A stretch of 6,316 nucleotides of DNA from a virus. Its lineage: Duplodnaviria; Heunggongvirae; Uroviricota; Caudoviricetes. Positions 1-6,316 of this stretch are shown here, in pieces (positions within the stretch are counted from its first letter, which is position 1; each line of letters opens with the position of its first letter). Location: the IMG/VR virus record IMGVR_UViG_2541047915_000005; one strand, 5' to 3'. The notes beneath the pieces are model-generated. The model saw only the letters and a program-made list of their open reading frames with translations. It searched no databases and was not told the DNA's origin. Both the position numbers and the translations under genes were made by a program.

Positions 1-719
1 TCGTTTTCACGAAGCTCTCTGCTATGCCGTTACTCTCCGGACTCCGCACCGCCGTGCTCTTCGGTTCAAGCCCCAACATCCGGGCAAACTGCCGTGTTTC
101 ATTAGCCCGGTAGCATGAACCATTATCCGTCAGCCACTCTACTGGAGACGCCGGAAGCTCGTTGCCGAAGCGGCGTTCCACCGCTCCCAGCATGACGTCC
201 TGTACTGTTTCACTGTTGAAGCCGCCCGTAGTGACCGCCCAGTGCAGTGCCTCACGGTCACAGCAGTCCAGCGCGAACGTGACTCGCAGTTTTTCTCCGT
301 TATCACAGCGGAACTCGAACCCGTCAGAGCACCATCGCTGATTACTTTCTTTCACAGCCACTCTGCCTGTATGTGCCCGTTTCGATGGCGGTACAGCAGG
401 TTTTCGCTCAAGCAACAGCGCATTCTGGCGCATGATCCGGTAAACACGTTTGGCATTGATCGCAGGCATACCATCAAGTTCTGCCTGTCTGCGAAGCAGC
501 GCCCATACCCGACGATAACCATACGTGGGCAGCTCTCCGATAACATGGTGTATACGGAGAAGCACATCCGTATCATCAGTGTGACGACTGCGGCGGCCAT
601 CCATCCAGTCATCGGTTCGTCTGAGAATGACGTGCAACTGCGCACGCGACACCCGGAGACAACGGCTGACTAAGCTTACTCCCCATCCCCGGGCAATAAG
701 GGCGCGTGCGCTATCCACT
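1..719 (-). CDS. insD: IS2 transposase OrfB (InsD, DDE catalytic domain), 3'-truncated by window edge; normally made as InsCD fusion by -1 frameshift
   Basis: Manual translation of the reverse complement of 1-719 gives an uninterrupted frame: (V)[238 protein letters not shown]... It is absent from the ORF track because it has no ATG (GTG at reverse complement of 717-719, or fusion) and no stop in the window. A slippery A6G motif (reverse complement of 719-726, CAAAAAAG) sits at the insC/insD overlap. Confidence 0.9.
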
Positions 720-1041
720 TTTTTGCCCGTCCATATTCAACGGCTTCTTTGAGGAGTTCATTTTCCATCGTTTTCTTGCCGAGCAGGCGCTGGAGTTCTT
801 TAATCTGCTTCATGGCGGCAGCAAGTTCAGAGGCAGGAACAACCTGTTCTCCGGCGGCGACAGCAGTAAGACTTCCTTCCTGGTATTGCTTACGCCAGAG
901 AAATAACTGGCTGGCTGCCACACCGTGTTGCCGGGCAACGAGGGAGACCGTCATCCCTGGTTCAAAGCTCTGCTGAACAATTGCGATCTTTTCCTGTGTG
1001 GTACGCCGTCTGCGTTTCTCCGGTCCTAAGACATCAATCAT
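676..1041 (-). CDS. insC: IS2 transposase OrfA (InsC), 121 aa
   Basis: Minus-strand ORF translating [124 protein letters not shown] is the reverse complement of 1039-1041, preceded by GGAG. The ORF track's longer 676..1086 uses an upstream in-frame ATG inside the IR and is probably not the real start. Stop TAA is the reverse complement of 676-678. Confidence 0.92.
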
Positions 1042-1091
1042 CTGCTCTCCAATGACTAGTCTAAAAACTAGTATTAAGACTATCACTTAAA

Positions 1092-1132
1092 TAAGTGATA
1101 TTGGTTGTCTGGAGATTCAGGGGGCCAGTCTA
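1092..1132. repeat. IS2 left terminal inverted repeat (IRL), about 41 bp, outer end at 1132
   Basis: Terminal ...CCAGTCTA at 1125-1132 is the reverse complement of the IS2 terminus TAGACTGG. The extent of the IR is approximate. Confidence 0.8.
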
Positions 1133-1558
1133 GATAGTTAAATGGATTGATGAAAATTAAAACTACACAGGTGGGCTCAGACTATTGGAGGAAGTTGGGG
1201 ACACTCAGAATCCTGTGGAATGAAATAAACCGGTCTATCCGTCCATTACCCTTTTAGCTGCGCTGTATCGTCGCCGTATTCCCGCATTAACCATGACCGT
1301 AGCCCGACGGGGAATTCCTTCTGCGTGAGTGTGCGGGAATAATTAAAAACGATGCACACCGGGTTTTTACCGCGTTAATGATTCGCGGGTTTATCCCGGT
1401 GCGATGGTGGAAGAAACAGGAAGCTGTATTACAGAAAGTGCTACTACTGTATCCCGATGCGATGTATGTAATGTGAGTCAGATAATGGCACAGGATGTGG
1501 TGATGTGGCAGTCTGGAACACAGGATATATTGTCAGAATAAGACCCGTAGGAATAAAA

Positions 1559-1885
1559 ATGAAAAGACGCCTTTTACTACTTTTTCTGTTATCTGTCCTG
1601 GCAGTGGGATGCTCGCAGCAAAAAGCTGATGAGCCCCGGCAATTAGTGACGGTGTATCCACGATATCCGGAATATGCTGCAGCAAATTATATCAAGGGGC
1701 TGGTTGAGGTTAAGTTCGATATTGGTGCTGATGGGACTGTGACACGGATCGTTTTTCTCCGCTCAGAGCCTCATAATTTGTTTCGTGATGAAGTGGTGAA
1801 GGCCATGGCGAAATGGCGATTTGAAAAGAATCGCCCCTGTCAGGGAGTGAAGAGACAATTTATCTTTACGCCGTCACGTCCTTGA
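1559..1885 (+). CDS. Small lipoprotein (108 aa precursor) with a TonB C-terminal domain; putative prophage cargo (moron) gene
   Basis: ATG at 1559 preceded by AGGA (1549-1552). The N-terminus MKRRLLLLFLLSVLAVGC has a positive n-region, hydrophobic core and lipobox-like LAVGC, with Ser at +2. The mature part YPRYPEYAAANYIKGLVEVKFDIGADGTVTRIVFLRSEPHNLFRDEVVKAMAKWRFEKNRP aligns with E. coli TonB C-terminus as recalled ([58 protein letters not shown]). The ORF track's upstream ATG at 1505 would add 18 residues before the signal peptide and is less likely. Stop TGA at 1883-1885. Confidence 0.75.
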   Translation: MKRRLLLLFLLSVLAVGCSQQKADEPRQLVTVYPRYPEYAAANYIKGLVEVKFDIGADGTVTRIVFLRSEPHNLFRDEVVKAMAKWRFEKNRPCQGVKRQFIFTPSRP

Positions 1886-1977
1886 TGCTTCCAGGTAGAG
1901 AGGGGCTGGAAGCAGGAGAAAAATGAAAGAGCCAGCGGTTATATTTTTGTCATGGCTGACGAGGAATGATGGAAGAA

Positions 1978-2000
1978 GGCGTTGTATGCCACACAACGCC
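1978..2000. terminator. Stem-loop (8-bp perfect stem GGCGTTGT/ACAACGCC, 7-nt loop) between convergent ORFs; possible bidirectional intrinsic terminator
   Basis: Stem 1978-1985 pairs with 1993-2000. A T-rich tract follows on the plus strand (TCACTGTTCATTTCTTCTTTTTCTC, 2001-2025) and a TTCTTCC tract on the minus side. The T-run is not immediately adjacent to the stem, so this is weak. Confidence 0.25.
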
Positions 2001-2007
2001 TCACTGT

Positions 2008-2187
2008 TCATTTCTTCTTTTTCTCTGGTGGAACCCGATGAATAAGAGTTGCACTGGTTTCCGATGAGATGGCGATATACTCGGGCAAAGTATGCTGGCA
2101 GTTTTCCAACTGGTCAAAAATACCTGCTCTCGTCTGTTGCAATGCCTGCAGCATGCGGCGGCAATGCGCCTTGCTTTTACTAACCAT
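2008..2187 (-). CDS. Hypothetical small protein (59 aa, basic KKKK C-terminus); the ORF track's longer version 2008..2361 uses an upstream ATG without an RBS
   Basis: Internal ATG (reverse complement of 2185-2187) is preceded by a strong Shine-Dalgarno (GATAGAGGAAGGAAAG-ATG). Product MVSKSKAHCRRMLQALQQTRAGIFDQLENCQHTLPEYIAISSETSATLIHRVPPEKKKK. I recognise no homolog. The C-terminal lysines are read from the T-rich tract that could equally be a plus-strand terminator tail, so this could be spurious. Confidence 0.3.
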   Translation of the reverse strand: MVSKSKAHCRRMLQALQQTRAGIFDQLENCQHTLPEYIAISSETSATLIHRVPPEKKKK

Positions 2188-2248
2188 CTTTCCTTCCTCT
2201 ATCAGTCGCTGCGTGAACTCATCATGGAATACCAGGTAAATGCGGATG

Positions 2249-2500
2249 TTATCGGTTTTGGCTACGCAGCATAGTACAAAACGGACAGGTGCATCCCGGG
2301 ACGGGGGAGGCGTCACATGTCCCTGTGATGGTTGTTCCGGGTAATGTACTGTGTGGGGCATAAAAATGTCCGATAATTTTACTTTCTACCGCAGTTAGTT
2401 GATTCGTTGGTCCTGGTAGCACATTGGGCGAGGATTTAAATGCCAGGCAACTGAAGGATGATGTCGCAAGGGAGATAGCGAGAATATTTCTGATTTTCAT
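2249..2500 (-). CDS. Hypothetical small secreted protein (83 aa precursor, predicted Sec signal peptide, Cys-rich mature part)
   Basis: ATG (reverse complement of 2498-2500) preceded by AGAGG 9 nt upstream. N-terminus MKIRNILAISLATSSFSCLA-FKSS looks like a signal peptide. Mature region has 4 Cys (GTCDASPVPGCTCPFCT). The ORF track lists a longer 2249..2569 version starting upstream. It overlaps the 2008..2361 frame, and I recognise no homolog. Confidence 0.3.
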   Translation of the reverse strand: MKIRNILAISLATSSFSCLAFKSSPNVLPGPTNQLTAVESKIIGHFYAPHSTLPGTTITGTCDASPVPGCTCPFCTMLRSQNR

Positions 2501-2648
2501 TTGATGATGCCTCTGTGTGAAATGACGGTAAACGACGCACTTGTGCCGGCACATAATAGCAAGCACCATAATAGATCAGATTCGATTCTTGCTGTAAGTG
2601 ATAATTATTCTCGTTTTCGGGTCCTTTCCGTCGATCCAACAGGTTACG

Positions 2649-2660
2649 GGGCGGCGACCT
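2649..2660 (+). other. cosN of a lambda-type cohesive-end site; the 12-nt sequence GGGCGGCGACCT corresponds to the left cohesive end of lambda
   Basis: Sequence 2641-2690 (AGGTTACGGGGCGGCGACCTCGCGGTTTTTCACTATTTATGAAAATTTTTC) closely matches the lambda cos junction and left end as I recall it (…CAGGTTACG|GGGCGGCGACCTCGCGGGTTTTCGCTATTTATGAAAATTTTCCGG). It lies 189 bp upstream of the Nu1-like start, the same spacing as in lambda (Nu1 starts at nt 191). Confidence 0.85.
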
Positions 2661-2836: not shown

Positions 2837-3385
2837 ATGAAGGTTAATAAAAAGAGGCTTGCCGAAATTTTCAACGTGGACCCGCGGACGATTGAACGCT
2901 GGCAGTCTCAGGGACTCCCTTGCGCCTCCAAAGGTAGTAAGGGCATTGAATCTGTATTTGATACTGCCATGGCAATTCAGTGGTATGCGCAGAGGGAAAC
3001 TGATATCGAAAACGAAAAGCTCCGCAAAGAACTGGCCGATTTGCGTGCGGCAGCGGAGTCAGATTTACAACCCGGCACCATTGACTATGAACGCTACCGG
3101 CTCACAAAAGCGCAGGCAGATGCGCAGGAACTGAAAAATGCCCGTGAAGACGGAGTGGTGCTGGAAACTGAACTGTTTACCTTCATTCTGCAACGTGTGG
3201 CACAGGAGATTTCGGGGATACTTGTGCGTGTGCCGTTGACATTACAGCGTAAATATCCGGACATTTCACCATCACACCTTGATGTGGTGAAAACTGAAAT
3301 CGCGAAAGCCTCCAATGTTGCAGCTAAGGCCGGTGAAAACGTGGGCGGGTGGATCGATGATTTCAGACGCGCAGAAGGCAGCTAA
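2837..3385 (+). CDS. nu1: Terminase small subunit (lambda gpNu1 family), 182 aa
   Basis: Product [28 protein letters not shown]...[28 protein letters not shown]... is collinear with lambda Nu1 as recalled (MEVNKKQLADIFGASIRTIQNWQEQGMP...[28 protein letters not shown]...). N-terminal winged-HTH region present. Stop TAA at 3383-3385. The gene sits immediately downstream of cos. Confidence 0.95.
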
Positions 3386-5285
3386 TGCAGCCGGTGCGAT
3401 AGCTACAGGGCTTTTATCTCTCATTATTCCTGTTCCACTGACGACAGTTCAGTGGGCCAATAAACATTATTACCTTCCTAAAGAGTCGTCTTATACCCCG
3501 GGGCGATGGGAAACACTGCCGTTTCAGGTTGGCATCATGAACTGTATGGGCAACGATCTGATTCGCACGGTTAACCTGATTAAATCTGCCCGTGTTGGTT
3601 ATACAAAGATGTTGCTGGGAGTGGAGGCTTATTTTATTGAGCATAAATCACGCAACAGCCTTCTTTTTCAGCCCACGGACTCAGCTGCTGAAGATTTTAT
3701 GAAATCTCATGTTGAGCCAACGATAAGGGATGTTCCTGCATTGCTGGAGCTGGCTCCATGGTTCGGAAGAAAACACCGCGATAATACGCTCACCCTGAAG
3801 CGTTTTTCCTCCGGTGTGGGGTTCTGGTGTCTGGGTGGTGCGGCAGCAAAAAACTACCGTGAAAAATCCGTGGATGTGGTCTGTTATGACGAGCTTTCCT
3901 CGTTCGAACCGGATGTTGAAAAAGAGGGTTCGCCAACCCTGCTGGGGGATAAACGTATTGAGGGCTCTGTATGGCCAAAATCCATTCGCGGCTCGACGCC
4001 TAAAATCAAAGGCTCCTGCCAGATCGAAAAAGCCGCTAACGAGTCGGCACACTTCATGCGTTTTTATGTGCCCTGTCCGCACTGTGGGGAGGAGCAGTAT
4101 CTGAAATTTGGCGATGATGCCTCGCCTTTCGGTCTTAAGTGGGAGAAGAATAAGCCAGAAAGTGTTTTCTACCTTTGTGAGCATCATGGCTGTGTGATCC
4201 ATCAGTCTGAGCTTGACCAGAGTAACGGGCGGTGGATCTGTGAAAACACGGGCATGTGGACCCGTGACGGCCTGATGTTTTTCAGCGCCCGGGGTGATGA
4301 AATTCCGCCGCCGCGCTCCATCACTTTCCATATCTGGACGGCGTACAGTCCGTTCACCACCTGGGTACAGATTGTCTATGACTGGCTGGATGCACTGAAA
4401 GATCCCAACGGCCTGAAAACCTTTGTGAACACCACGCTGGGCGAGACCTGGGAAGAGGCTGTGGGCGAAAAACTCGATCACCAGGTGCTGATGGATAAGG
4501 TTGTGCGTTACACGGCGGCGGTGCCTGCCCGGGTGGTTTATCTGACGGCGGGCATTGACTCGCAGCGAAACCGTTTTGAGATGTATGTCTGGGGATGGGC
4601 TCCGGGAGAGGAAGCCTTTCTGGTGGATAAAATCATCATTATGGGGCGTCCCGATGAGGAAGAGACGCTGTTACGTGTGGATGCGGCGATCAACAAAAAA
4701 TACCGCCATGCAGACGGAACCGAAATGACCATTTCCCGTGTCTGCTGGGACATCGGGGGGATCGATGGCGAAATCGTTTATCAGAGGTCAAAAAAACACG
4801 GTGTTTTCCGGGTGCTGCCGGTAAAAGGCGCATCTGTCTATGGCAAGCCGGTGATCACCATGCCAAAAACCCGCAATCAGCGGGGCGTGTATCTGTGTGA
4901 AGTGGGGACGGACACCGCAAAAGAAATTCTCTATGCCCGTATGAAAGCCGATCCCACGCCTGTGGATGAAGCCACGTCGTATGCTATCCGTTTTCCTGAT
5001 GATCCGGAGATTTTTTCGCAGACAGAGGCGCAGCAACTGGTCGCGGAAGAGCTTGTGGAGAAGTGGGAAAAAGGAAAGATGCGTCTGCTGTGGGATAACA
5101 AAAAGCGGCGTAACGAAGCGCTGGACTGCCTGGTGTATGCCTACGCGGCATTACGTGTGTCCGTGCAACGCTGGCAGCTTGATCTGGCTGTACTGGCAAA
5201 ATCCCGGGAAGAAGAGACGACCCGGCCAACCCTTAAAGAACTGGCAGCGAAGCTGTCCGGAGGAGTGAATGGTTACAGTCGCTGA
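3357..5285 (+). CDS. A: Terminase large subunit (lambda gpA family), 642 aa
   Basis: Product resembles lambda gpA along its whole length (e.g. [100 protein letters not shown]). Start chosen at ATG 3357 (MISDAQ...), overlapping the nu1 3' end by 29 nt as in lambda. The ORF track's ATG at 3315 is less likely. Stop TGA at 5283-5285. Confidence 0.95.
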
Positions 5286-5475: not shown

Positions 5476-6316
5476 AACGAACGCCTGTCCTGATTGATGT
5501 GAACGGCGTTCCGCTTCGTGAGAGTCTCAGCTACAACGGGGGCGGTGCAGGATTTGGCGGGCAAATGGCTGAGTGGTTGCCACCGGCGCAGAGTGCCGAT
5601 GCGGCCCTGCTGCCCGCGTTGCGTCTGGGGAATGCCCGGGCAGATGATCTGGTGCGCAATAACGGAATAGCGGCTAATGCGGTGGCTCTGCATAAGGATC
5701 ACATTGTCGGGCATATGTTTCTGATCAGCTACCGTCCGAACTGGCGCTGGCTGGGGATGCGGGAGACCGCAGCAAAAAGCTTTGTCGATGAGGTGGAGGC
5801 GGCCTGGTCGGAATACGCCGAAGGGATGTTTGGCGAGATCGACGTGGAAGGAAAACGCACGTTCACGGAATTTATCCGTGAAGGTGTGGGCGTTCATGCG
5901 TTTAACGGCGAAATCTTTGTGCAGCCGGTCTGGGATACGGAAACCACGCAGTTATTCCGTACGCGTTTTAAAGCCGTGAGTCCGAAACGGGTGGACACGC
6001 CTGGACACGGTATGGGGAACCGTTTTCTGCGGGCCGGTGTGGAGGTCGATCGATATGGCCGTGCCGTCGCGTACCATATCTGTGAGGATGATTTTCCGTT
6101 CTCTGGTAGTGGACGATGGGAACGGATCCCGCGTGAACTTCCCACCGGGCGTCCGGCCATGCTGCATATTTTCGAGCCGGTGGAGGACGGGCAGACCCGT
6201 GGGGCTAATCAGTTTTACAGCGTCATGGAACGGCTGAAGATGCTCGATTCCCTGCAGGCAACACAGCTTCAGTCGGCCATAGTGAAGGCGATGTATGCAG
6301 CGACGATTGAAAGTGA
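5472..6316 (+). CDS. B: Portal protein (lambda gpB family), 5' portion only; continues beyond the window
   Basis: ATG at 5472-5474 overlaps the W stop (ATGA). Manual translation gives MKRTPVLIDVNGVPLRESLSYNGGGAGFGGQMAEWLPPAQSADAALLPALRLGNARADDLVRNNGIAANAVALHKDHIVG...HAFNGEIFVQPVWDT...IFEPVEDGQTRGANQFYSVMERLKMLDSLQATQLQSAIVKAMYAATIES, which matches lambda gpB as recalled (...NARADDLVRNNGYAANAIQLHQDHIVG...HAFNGELFVQATWDT...VFEPVEDGQTRGANVFYSVMEQMKMLDTLQNTQLQSAIVKAMYAATIES). Absent from the ORF track because there is no stop in the window. Confidence 0.93.
   Translation, partial: MKRTPVLIDVNGVPLRESLSYNGGGAGFGGQMAEWLPPAQSADAALLPALRLGNARADDLVRNNGIAANAVALHKDHIVGHMFLISYRPNWRWLGMRETAAKSFVDEVEAAWSEYAEGMFGEIDVEGKRTFTEFIREGVGVHAFNGEIFVQPVWDTETTQLFRTRFKAVSPKRVDTPGHGMGNRFLRAGVEVDRYGRAVAYHICEDDFPFSGSGRWERIPRELPTGRPAMLHIFEPVEDGQTRGANQFYSVMERLKMLDSLQATQLQSAIVKAMYAATIES

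Follow-up and report, generated by a model that had tools for sequence, protein, structure and literature searches.

A phage 21-type prophage lipoprotein with a stand-alone TonB C-terminal domain as a candidate TonB-box decoy

What might a prophage gain from a lipoprotein that consists of little more than TonB's C-terminal domain? The question is raised by an ORF in a 6,316-nt stretch of Caudoviricetes DNA (IMG/VR record IMGVR_UViG_2541047915_000005), the whole of which is referred to here as the window. The first-pass annotation had proposed that the product could occupy the TonB boxes of outer membrane transporters and so act as a decoy or exclusion factor in the lysogen. Here, this proposal is weighed against other roles using profile searches, structure prediction, comparative genomics and published transcription data.

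The gene and its genomic slot

The gene starts at ATG 1559 and stops at the TGA at 1883-1885, giving a product of 108 aa. A mechanical list of ORFs extends the same frame to a GTG at 1505; the ATG matches the phage 21 annotation and every homolog. The product is identical to WP_000830178.1 (database name 'TonB family protein'), and public annotation already covers the gene, naming its product a TonB C-terminal domain protein or a TonB fragment. The features of the locus are as follows.

1-1132, minus strand: IS2 (IS3 family), truncated at the start of the window and ending in the intergenic region between iss/bor and the TonB_C gene
1259-1400, plus strand: non-coding block upstream of the gene and accompanying it; putative regulatory region or leader
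1549-1552, plus strand: ribosome-binding site AGGA, 6 nt 5′ of the ATG and also annotated there in phage 21
1559-1885, plus strand: ORF of 108 aa plus stop for the lipoprotein with a stand-alone TonB C-terminal domain; phage 21 CPT_21_73
1559-1612, plus strand: lipoprotein signal peptide (residues 1-18) with lipobox L-A-V-G-C, Cys18 codon at 1610-1612
1634-1867, plus strand: TonB C-terminal domain (residues 26-103), corresponding to residues 153-230 of E. coli TonB
1886-1914, plus strand: 9-bp hairpin directly 3′ of the stop codon, with no U-tract
2636-2660, plus strand: cos region, with the right end of the phage 21 genome at window position 2648
2837-5285, plus strand: terminase genes of the phage 21/lambda type (small subunit 2837-3385, large subunit 3315-5285)

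At the DNA level, the gene and phage 21 gene CPT_21_73 share 100% identity, and so do window positions 1133-2648 and the right end of that phage as far as cos. The IS2 end lies 426 bp from the ATG of the TonB_C gene, and the insertion is strain-specific, its junction being present in 3 of 5426 genomes. The gene had been placed between an IS2-interrupted late region and cos; its position between the lysis genes and cos holds, but the element is intergenic and interrupts no late gene. Among the small neighbors, ORFs 1404-1541 and 1923-2045 had no match in Pfam or PHROG, and the sole match of ORF 2092-2274 was an uncharacterised PHROG. An ompC-like porin gene is carried by the same prophage type, both here and in Nissle 1917.

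This slot is constant: the gene lies 3′ of the holin, endolysin and spanin genes and 5′ of the packaging genes, also among phages that differ in lysis and terminase type. In many phages it directly follows Rz/Rz1 on the same strand, and the lipoprotein relatives in Salmonella and Klebsiella prophages are always found just past the lysis cassette. Like a moron, the gene is variably present, sits between conserved modules and, in the LF82 data, is transcribed from a repressed prophage (PMC9928086).

A lipoprotein signal and a complete TonB C-terminal domain

The N-terminus (MKRRLLLLFLLSVLAVGC) conforms to a PROSITE-type lipobox rule, as the first-pass annotation had read it, with an n-region (MKRR), a hydrophobic core (LLLLFLLSV) and a lipobox (LAVG followed by C18). 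The same pattern was found in 21 relatives, and the lipobox is kept in those of E. coli, Salmonella, Klebsiella, Rahnella and Erwinia/Pantoea. At +2, the window protein has Ser and the relatives have Ser, Thr or Ala, never Asp. Under the Lol rule, Asp at +2 keeps a lipoprotein in the inner membrane; from its +2 residue, the window protein is predicted to be located at the outer membrane. Only eight residues (SQQKADEP) separate Cys18 from the domain that follows.

That domain was matched by Pfam PF03544 (TonB_C) over residues 33-99 with 49.2 bits (gathering cut-off 24.6, E=7.3e-13) and by TIGR01352 with 47.4 bits (cut-off 27.1). A phmmer search against the PDB aligned the protein with E. coli TonB chains at E ~1e-14, ungapped over 81 residues spanning TonB 150-230, and the window protein ends at the equivalent of TonB 235. 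Identity to E. coli TonB is 41% over the 78 aligned domain residues. TonB Y163/P164, F180, G186, F202, W213 and F230 are retained as Y36/P37, F53, G59, F75, W86 and F103, Y215 is represented by Phe (F88), and most of the YP-motif and aromatic core residues show little or no variation across the family alignments. The equivalents of TonB R158, Q160 and R166 differ, being T31, Y33 and Y39. In TonB, these three side chains are implicated in transporter contacts, Q160 as a suppressor position.

With a 41-sequence alignment as input, AlphaFold modeled the domain at a pLDDT of 96-98 throughout; an earlier 6-sequence alignment had given a pLDDT of 60, too weak to use. The predicted elements are a helix at 38-42, strands at 47-55 and 61-70, a second helix at 76-83 and a strand at 94-103, the last of which corresponds to TonB β3, the strand that pairs with TonB boxes (PMC11658791). 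Foldseek against the PDB retrieved 1u07_A at E=2e-8. The model superposes on the TonB of the BtuB:TonB complex (2gsk_B) with an rmsd of 1.0 Å over 79 columns and on that of the FhuA:TonB complex (2grx_C) with 0.9 Å over 75 columns, with a TM score of 0.92 in both cases.

The C-terminal domain of E. coli TonB (~150-239; 1U07, 1XX3, 2GSK chain B, 2GRX chain C) thus offers the nearest comparison: it is the same Pfam domain with the same topology of helix and three strands, β3 included. In contrast to TonB, the window protein is phage-borne, has a lipoprotein signal and lacks the anchor, the spacer and the link to ExbB/ExbD. The NCBIfam equivalogs for full-length TonB (PRK10819.x) scored 45-69 bits, far below their cut-offs of 265-448, and aligned residues 19-103 only, to model positions ~150-240; no part of the window protein aligned to the TonB anchor or proline-rich region. 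Without a membrane anchor and a proline-rich spacer, the protein cannot transduce energy. The domain assignment of the first-pass annotation is upheld in all its parts: the two TonB motifs it quoted recur in the ungapped phmmer alignment, anchor and spacer are absent, and both of the comparisons it had suggested, with Pfam TonB_C and with FhuA- and BtuB-bound TonB, came out in its favor. By sequence comparison, the ORF is confirmed to encode a protein with a lipoprotein signal and a complete stand-alone TonB C-terminal domain. Separately, a 152-aa lipoprotein on a 1-kb contig (P0139) was found to be 63% identical to the TonB C-terminal domain.

Distribution, selection and expression

The gene is carried by 1225 of 5426 complete E. 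coli genomes and a 72%-identical allele by a further 417 of them, a prevalence of about a quarter (22-30%). Carriers include Nissle 1917, the type strain, EHEC prophage CP-933N and Stx1a phages; among phage records, 15 of 50,697 contain it. The protein is 100% identical from phage 21 through modern clinical isolates, and prophage Perceval of strain LF82 encodes the identical protein within a 701-base stretch of 99.9% identity. Across Enterobacterales prophages, full-length identity is 40-50%. Values of dN/dS of 0.18 between E. coli alleles (dS 0.35) and 0.15 between Salmonella alleles (dS 0.65) indicate that the gene is kept by purifying selection (dN/dS 0.1-0.2). More distant exported TonB_C members reside in ordinary chromosomal contexts that contain no phage or toxin genes, and a Gibbsiella-type query had no match among viral contigs.

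In the LF82 lysogen, transcription of LF82_160, the 'TonB fragment' of Perceval, is 8-fold over the prophage background, compared to 11-fold for the CI repressor gene, and the co-expressed morons include those for the porin NmpC and the iron/manganese importer SitABCD (PMC9928086). Upstream of the gene, the non-coding block at 1259-1400 is 82-85% identical to divergent E. coli alleles (three divergent sequences), a conservation equal to that of the coding region. Its inverted repeats are nested, and it has no ORF that reaches 40 aa. No plus-strand site was found 5′ of the gene in a consensus sigma-70 scan, and no Rfam family in 1100-2850, a range that includes this block. The hairpin 3′ of the stop codon lies in an 85-nt stretch that folds only modestly better than shuffled sequences (z = -1.7); the hairpin may serve as a weak terminator or stabilise the RNA end.

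A perfect 7-1-7 Fur box (TGATAAT-n-ATTATCA) precedes the start codon by 15-29 nt in nine of nine Salmonella-type loci. Among the clades compared, this box is limited to the Salmonella clade. Fur control of the E. coli allele was considered and rejected, as the whole window contains no 19-mer Fur box within three mismatches, and looser scans of the 250 bp upstream of the E. coli gene likewise found none.

In Serratia, an exported TonB_C gene lies directly 5′ of, and co-oriented with, a colicin immunity gene, followed by a convergent gene for a pore-forming colicin; this arrangement recurs in three different genomic backgrounds. In the colicin, the TolB-box segment of colicin A is replaced by DSMTVTG, which by its letters resembles a TonB box. 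The toxin retains a colicin A-type TolA-binding domain, so the linkage of the TonB fold to it may concern Tol rather than Ton. The Serratia clade has no lipobox and is only ~35% identical to the window protein.

Candidate roles of the lipoprotein

The role that we rank first, as a serious possibility if short of probable, is that of a tethered dominant-negative decoy that limits TonB-dependent entry into the lysogen. The gene is a prophage accessory gene, and the TonB C-terminal domain would hang about eight linker residues below its lipid anchor. Lacking the inner membrane anchor and the spacer, the domain would be able to bind but unable to pull. It would occupy TonB boxes by β-strand addition, as TonB does, and the boxes could be those of outer membrane TonB-dependent transporters, of the N-termini of group B colicins or of both; colicin M, for one, requires its own TonB box. 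Instead or in addition, it might form dead-end dimers with TonB's C-terminal domain. Phages of the T1 and phi80 type, colicins and microcins would then enter the lysogen less readily, at the cost of some loss of siderophore and B12 uptake. Late lytic production is also to be expected, given that the gene has the late-strand orientation and sits between the spanin genes and cos; a late product could shield the infected cell or prevent the wastage of progeny, as has been proposed for T5 Llp. Binding to TonB boxes and an exclusion phenotype are both plausible by analogy with the systems that follow.

The direct experimental precedent for a dominant-negative mode comes from anchorless C-terminal portions of TonB. 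Howard, Herrmann, Stratilo and Braun (J Bacteriol, 2001) reportedly found that periplasmic TonB fragments also inhibit phi80 infection and killing by colicin M, the fragments being soluble, overexpressed laboratory constructs of at least 118 residues (TonB 122-239). Compared to these, the window protein is natural and shorter (the equivalent of TonB 150-235), shares only 41% identity and is predicted to be held at the outer membrane by a lipid anchor. For iron import, PMC9841981, which cites Howard et al. 2001, describes inhibition by the overexpressed periplasmic TonB domain.

The closest functional analogs are small phage-encoded lipoproteins. T5 Llp resides in the inner leaflet of the outer membrane and blocks FhuA from the periplasmic face (bioRxiv 10.64898/2026.03.26.714494), and the Cor proteins of phi80, N15 and HK022 are superinfection-exclusion lipoproteins that act on FhuA (PMC11436027). 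No kinship to either was detected, Pfam giving TonB_C only for the window protein; the Llp fold is reported to be common in BFVD (bioRxiv 10.64898/2026.03.26.714494), and a Foldseek search of BFVD with the window protein returned no viral structure at E <= 1e-3. Llp and Cor each act on FhuA specifically and are encoded at other genome positions, whereas in principle no TonB box need be beyond the reach of a TonB domain. The concept of a prophage copy of a host envelope part is shared with P-FimU of Pseudomonas phages, a prophage-expressed, diverged host envelope component that blocks other phages (PMC12952977). In a working pilus, P-FimU takes the place of the host component, whereas the TonB domain would compete with TonB and cannot replace it. 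Lambda Bor and Iss share the slot between lysis genes and cos, the lipoprotein nature of the product and expression from the prophage, but they are unrelated in sequence and fold and are transcribed from the opposite strand.

Several lines of evidence favor the decoy: transcription in the LF82 lysogen together with purifying selection, the Salmonella Fur box as a link to the Ton regulon together with the colicin immunity linkage in Serratia, and the precedents of dominant-negative periplasmic TonB fragments and of Llp and Cor. It is weakened by the lack of conservation at the equivalents of R158, Q160 and R166, by the E. coli alleles having neither a Fur box nor a consensus promoter, and by the distant relatives in ordinary chromosomal contexts. 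A general block of TonB boxes should moreover starve the host of iron and B12, which sits uneasily with the 22-30% prevalence unless the protein is weakly expressed or selective in what it binds. A search of PADLOC-DB 2.0 (E <= 0.01) returned no match for the window protein, its small neighbors or the Salmonella and Serratia relatives. Our literature searches found no functional study of this protein and agree with the first-pass annotation that no such prophage exclusion system has been described.

Two of the alternatives were rejected. That the protein is a functionless, dead fragment of a captured tonB gene is hardly credible. Database names such as 'TonB fragment' and 'partial tonB-like membrane protein' and the many truncated or frameshifted copies in assemblies would fit such a relic, but the low dN/dS, the acquisition and conservation of a lipoprotein signal foreign to TonB, the 40-50% full-length identity among Enterobacterales prophages, the 100% identity from phage 21 to clinical isolates and the transcription in the lysogen do not; the dead fragment was rejected on dN/dS, the acquired lipobox and conservation. 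A part in the lysis machinery, as a spanin-like or lysis-regulating lipoprotein, is very unlikely. It would account for the full-length match to PHROG 1267 ('Rz-like spanin', E=5e-43) and for a gene that always adjoins the spanin genes, in many phages directly after Rz/Rz1 on the same strand. However, phage 21, L012 and L009 have complete, separate Rz/Rz1 pairs. An i-spanin is defined by an N-terminal transmembrane helix and a coiled-coil periplasmic domain, and an o-spanin is a proline-rich lipoprotein of ~40-60 residues paired with an i-spanin; the window protein has no transmembrane segment or coiled coil, is not a short proline-rich protein, folds as a globular TonB domain and is transcribed in the lysogen. 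The 'Rz-like spanin' label was rejected on the TonB fold and the full Rz/Rz1 pairs, and it is most simply explained as a transfer by neighborhood.

The remaining alternatives concede the fold and differ from the decoy in what it was selected for or what it binds. The protein may bind TonB-dependent transporters or TonB and yet have been selected for tuning host physiology rather than for exclusion, for example by capping iron influx or FecA-type signaling under derepression of the Ton regulon, with TonB-independent routes provided by the prophage. The Fur box in Salmonella, by which expression would follow iron limitation, the co-expression of NmpC and SitABCD from Perceval (PMC9928086), the porin gene of the same prophage type and the inhibition of iron import described in PMC9841981 all accord with such tuning. 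We nevertheless consider it improbable: less iron uptake under iron limitation brings no evident benefit by itself, the E. coli allele lacks a Fur box, and the association of the Serratia genes with colicin immunity speaks for protection rather than metabolism. There is a similarly small chance that the TonB fold has been re-used for another ligand, such as peptidoglycan (as a tether between outer membrane and wall), a host or serum factor or another periplasmic protein, in an envelope or virulence moron like bor/iss that has nothing to do with TonB boxes. Here, the adjoining bor/iss, also an outer membrane lipoprotein moron, the divergence at the equivalents of R158, Q160 and R166, and the non-phage chromosomal contexts of distant relatives would find an explanation. 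Related folds do bind other partners: TolA domain III (Foldseek ranks 18-25) binds colicins and phage g3p, and FusB (Foldseek matches 7zc8 and 9hi3) binds ferredoxin directly (PMC7593965). Against another ligand, the window protein is closest to genuine enterobacterial TonB, being 41% identical, ungapped and within 0.9-1.0 Å of the receptor-bound form; it retains the β3 strand and all of the conserved aromatics, and evidence for an alternative ligand was not found.

The decoy could also be one member of a larger group. It is conceivable, though on balance rather unlikely, that exported, anchorless TonB C-terminal domains constitute a widespread and unrecognised class of envelope immunity in Enterobacterales that captures the TonB boxes of transporters and toxins. 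In this more doubtful joint reading, the class would take the form of outer membrane lipoproteins in prophages and of soluble periplasmic proteins in the bacteriocin modules of Serratia plasmids, and its prophage carriers would comprise phage 21, Stx1a phages and prophages of Salmonella and Klebsiella. If it were true, a single small protein would shut a whole import pathway to TonB-dependent phages, colicins and microcins, and the Salmonella protein would be switched on by Fur exactly as that pathway opens.

Should the decoy role of the window protein itself hold, a very common prophage gene would alter the sensitivity of its host to a whole class of invaders, including TonB-dependent phages, group B colicins, microcins and siderophore-antibiotic conjugates, and would alter iron acquisition as well. 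It would bear on the choice of phages for therapy, on bacteriocin competition in the gut and on 'Trojan horse' antibiotics, and it would provide a clean natural case in which a phage has made part of a host machine into that machine's competitive inhibitor.

A predicted lipoprotein built around a complete TonB C-terminal domain

Features of the window at the TonB_C gene
1-1132, IS2, 426 bp upstream of the ATG
1549-1552, + strand, ribosome-binding site AGGA, read in the sequence
1559-1885, + strand, ORF of 108 residues, the TonB_C gene

The N-terminus of the 1559-1885 product (MKRRLLLLFLLSVLAVGC) conforms to the PROSITE-type lipobox rule, with Cys18 at the lipidation position and Ser at +2, in agreement with the lipoprotein-type signal described in the first-pass annotation. 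The product scored 49.2 bits against Pfam PF03544 (E = 7.3e-13; cut-off 24.6) and 47.4 bits against TIGR01352 (cut-off 27.1), and its top phmmer matches among PDB sequences were E. coli TonB chains (E ~1e-14). The ungapped alignment pairs residues 23-103 with E. coli TonB 150-230, at 41% identity across 78 domain residues, and contains both motif pairs earlier quoted for the resemblance to TonB exactly as they had been written. An AlphaFold model built on an alignment of 41 diverse relatives reached pLDDT 96-98 over residues 30-105, superseding a poor model from six close sequences (pLDDT 60). It superposes on TonB from two receptor complexes, BtuB:TonB at 1.0 Å (79 columns) and FhuA:TonB at 0.9 Å (75 columns). 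The profile search and the superposition, both proposed as checks, confirm the assignment of the domain. Strand 94-103 is the equivalent of beta3, and the domain is complete. TonB R158, Q160 and R166 are replaced by T31, Y33 and Y39.

The window protein is thus a member of the TonB_C domain family. Full-length TonB equivalog models gave scores far under their cut-offs, with the match confined to the C-terminal part of the models; the protein therefore does lack a membrane anchor and a proline-rich spacer, as had been noticed at the outset, and identity as a TonB was rejected.

Phage 21 origin, moron slot and selection

Window 1133-2648 matches the right end of phage 21 (OL657228) at 100% identity, and the phage record names the gene CPT_21_73 a 'TonB C-terminal domain protein'. 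In phage 21, S21, R21 and Rz/Rz1 are followed by bor (opposite strand), a 45-codon ORF, the TonB_C gene, two small ORFs and finally cos. In phage 21 coordinates, IS2 was inserted ~45 bp upstream of the annotated iss/bor start, in a divergent intergenic region. The late region had been called IS2-interrupted, a description that does not hold, as the element falls between iss/bor and the TonB_C gene and breaks no gene. Its junction was found in 3 of 5426 complete E. coli genomes, and the insertion is therefore a strain-specific accident; it may alter iss and TonB_C gene expression and would break late read-through.

The 701-base stretch around the gene occurs at at least 95% identity in 1225 of the 5426 genomes, including Nissle 1917 and the type strain ATCC 11775, and in phages such as ev017, Perceval and PhiR47_2. 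Another 417 of these genomes have a 72%-identical allele, which Stx1a-converting phages, JLK-2012 and Lys8385Vzw also carry. In public records the gene goes under names such as 'TonB family protein', 'TonB fragment' and 'partial tonB-like membrane protein encoded within prophage CP-933N', so the gene and its TonB similarity are already annotated in databases; the descriptive finding is correct and, there, not new.

An exhaustive phmmer search returned 2795 relatives at E <= 1e-3, many of which, at 107-133 residues, match full-length with 35-46% identity. A lipobox is found in most full-length relatives (Salmonella enterica, Klebsiella, Gibbsiella, Rahnella and Erwinia/Pantoea), and an ordinary signal peptide takes its place in relatives from Serratia, Pantoea and Erwinia rhapontici. 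The lipoprotein forms separate from genuine TonB domains in a neighbour-joining domain tree (78 columns, no support values). On IMG/VR prophage contigs the Salmonella type and a second lipoprotein type are common, and wherever the context was readable, holin, endolysin and Rz/Rz1 are followed by the TonB_C gene and then by packaging genes, across endolysin types and with lambda-type or HNH/HK97-type terminases alike. This position between lysis and packaging genes is the classical moron slot, that of bor too. More distant relatives reside in ordinary chromosomal settings without phage genes; the family as a whole is hence not exclusively viral.

Two further loci were observed. In a Salmonella prophage, a gene for a 133-aa secreted protein (L009 2786-3187, - strand), with a second pair of spanin genes on one side and the gene for the terminase small subunit on the other, is a probable additional moron of the same slot. 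A contig of only 1 kb encodes a 152-aa lipoprotein (P0139; L067 158-616; lipobox ALAG|C) whose C-terminal domain shares 63% identity with that of E. coli TonB, far closer than the phage family. Its sequence suggests that a TonB C-terminus was turned into a lipoprotein a second time, more recently.

Nei-Gojobori estimates for allele pairs
E. coli alleles P0011 and P0015: dN/dS 0.18, dS 0.35
Salmonella alleles L003 and L011: dN/dS 0.15, dS 0.65
Window allele and the 70% allele P0011: dN/dS 0.12, dS 1.5 (near saturation)

The gene is real, selected and expressed. The lipobox is kept in every full-length allele and, being foreign to TonB, was acquired; together with purifying selection and conservation, this makes a dead gene fragment extremely improbable. 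A lysis function would accord with phrog_1267, the family that includes the window protein and that PHROG files under lysis as 'Rz-like spanin'. Because its members are TonB_C lipoproteins, the label appears to be an annotation transferred by neighbourhood, and with the fold being that of TonB and Rz/Rz1 pairs present separately, such a function is very unlikely.

Expression and upstream regulatory sites

The gene belongs to the late strand and has the spanin genes on one side and cos on the other. In lambda, late-strand genes before cos are read by the antiterminated late transcript, and the TonB_C gene should therefore also be on that transcript. The protein encoded by Perceval, a prophage of adherent-invasive E. 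coli LF82, is identical to the window protein, and in a transcriptome-based moron search its gene (LF82_160, 'TonB fragment') stood 8-fold over prophage background in LB overnight culture, with the CI repressor gene at 11-fold (PMC9928086).

In each of the nine Salmonella-type loci (L003-L011), a perfect 7-1-7 Fur box, TGATAAT-n-ATTATCA, lies 15-29 nt upstream of the start codon (in L003 at 5972-5986, for example), and the 81%-identical variant L011 retains it despite diverged flanks. Among 67 loci, the pattern of 14 specified bases was confined to the Salmonella-type sites and one other occurrence. The box predicts that the Salmonella allele would be turned on together with tonB and TonB-served transporters. 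No Fur box was found in the E. coli alleles, and no recognisable promoter upstream of the E. coli allele.

A non-coding block upstream of the gene, at window 1259-1400, keeps 82-85% identity in comparisons of alleles with proteins only ~70% identical. Nested inverted repeats occur in it (such as TATTCCCGCA...TGCGGGAATA and CACCGGG...CCCGGTG), with no ORF of at least 40 aa and no Rfam match, and window 1225-1560, which includes it, folds better than shuffles (z = -2.3). The block may serve the moron as regulatory region or as structured leader. Just upstream of the TonB_C start, at a position matching that of the Salmonella Fur box, the 70% E. coli alleles (L065 ~2440-2470; L066) have a perfect 8-1-8 palindrome, AGAATAAG-A-CTTATTCT; the phage 21 and window allele has the left half only (agaataagac, window 1537-1546). 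This palindrome may be an operator for a regulator.

A candidate competitor for TonB boxes

The window protein is predicted to hang from the inner leaflet of the outer membrane by a linker of ~8 residues, where TonB boxes emerge, and would compete there, tethered and non-energised, for TonB boxes or else for TonB. Competition would make TonB-dependent entry harder for phages, colicins and microcins, at the cost of some siderophore and B12 uptake. In the 2001 work of Howard et al., a periplasmic TonB domain is said also to inhibit phi80 infection and colicin M killing, reportedly through competition at transporters or mixed dimers with TonB. A passage in PMC9841981, citing Howard et al. 2001, states that the overexpressed periplasmic TonB domain inhibits TonB-dependent iron import. 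The T5 lipoprotein Llp, located in the inner leaflet of the outer membrane, binds FhuA on its periplasmic face and stops infection (bioRxiv 10.64898/2026.03.26.714494), and TonB-dependent colicins bring their own TonB box (PMC11658791).

In Serratia, a secreted, non-lipoprotein TonB_C gene lies 67 bp upstream of a co-oriented colicin E1-type immunity gene, after which comes a convergent pore-forming colicin gene. Three unrelated backgrounds contain this three-gene module, namely a site on the chromosome, a plasmid-like contig also bearing KfrA and toxin-antitoxin genes, and an S. proteamaculans conjugative plasmid.

Serratia TonB_C-immunity-colicin modules
L053 7001-9510
L059 6001-8447
L068 4001-6498

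The Serratia colicin has an N-terminal domain homologous to that of colicin A, with the TolA-binding region kept and DDGDSMTVTGD standing where colicin A has its TolB box. We take DSMTVTG to resemble TonB boxes, that of FhuA being DTITVTA and that of colicin M ETLTV. The gene linkage suggests that an exported TonB-fold domain works alongside immunity against an imported toxin, be it by the Ton or the Tol pathway. The Serratia clade is only ~35% identical to the window protein. More boldly, prophages and bacteriocin modules may share a general class of immunity proteins that act as TonB-box decoys, which we hold to be less likely than not.

With a full domain including beta3, a predicted tether at the TonB-box site and the precedents, the tethered competitor is the best-supported explanation, plausible though short of probable. 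It gains strength from selection, from expression in the lysogen, from the Fur box and from the linkage to colicin immunity. Against it stand T31, Y33 and Y39 at the three TonB positions, the cost expected of a general TonB-box blockade, the E. coli allele lacking a recognisable promoter or Fur box, and the unrelated chromosomal contexts of some relatives. In the interaction of TonB with TonB boxes, local secondary structure counts more than particular side chains (PMC11658791). The Fur box would also fit a role in modulating iron uptake or signalling instead of defence, as would the co-expressed SitABCD and NmpC morons of Perceval; we consider this unlikely. In LF82, NmpC, the TonB fragment and SitABCD, an iron/manganese importer, are all morons expressed from a prophage (PMC9928086), and it is an attractive idea that one prophage might shut TonB gates while providing TonB-independent metal uptake. 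Re-use of the TonB fold for another ligand, for example peptidoglycan or a host factor, would suit the bor/iss neighbour and has an example in the ferredoxin binder FusB, yet it too seems improbable. Prophages of the Perceval type have an ompC/nmpC-like porin gene, placed between Q and the genes for lysis (L002 4513-5595; L069 197-1279).

PADLOC defence models gave no match for the window protein, and no functional study of it was found in the literature. A 2024 review of superinfection exclusion named Cor alone for TonB-dependent receptors (PMC11436027). Membership of the Llp/Cor family was rejected, with neither a sequence match nor a structural relative in BFVD. The proposed competitor would share with Llp/Cor-type systems receptor-level exclusion through an outer-membrane lipoprotein (predicted here), and differ in being made out of part of the energy transducer of the host itself. 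The decoy idea is reasonable and directly testable with classical reagents; if true, the prophage would carry a receptor-level exclusion lipoprotein built from a piece of host TonB.
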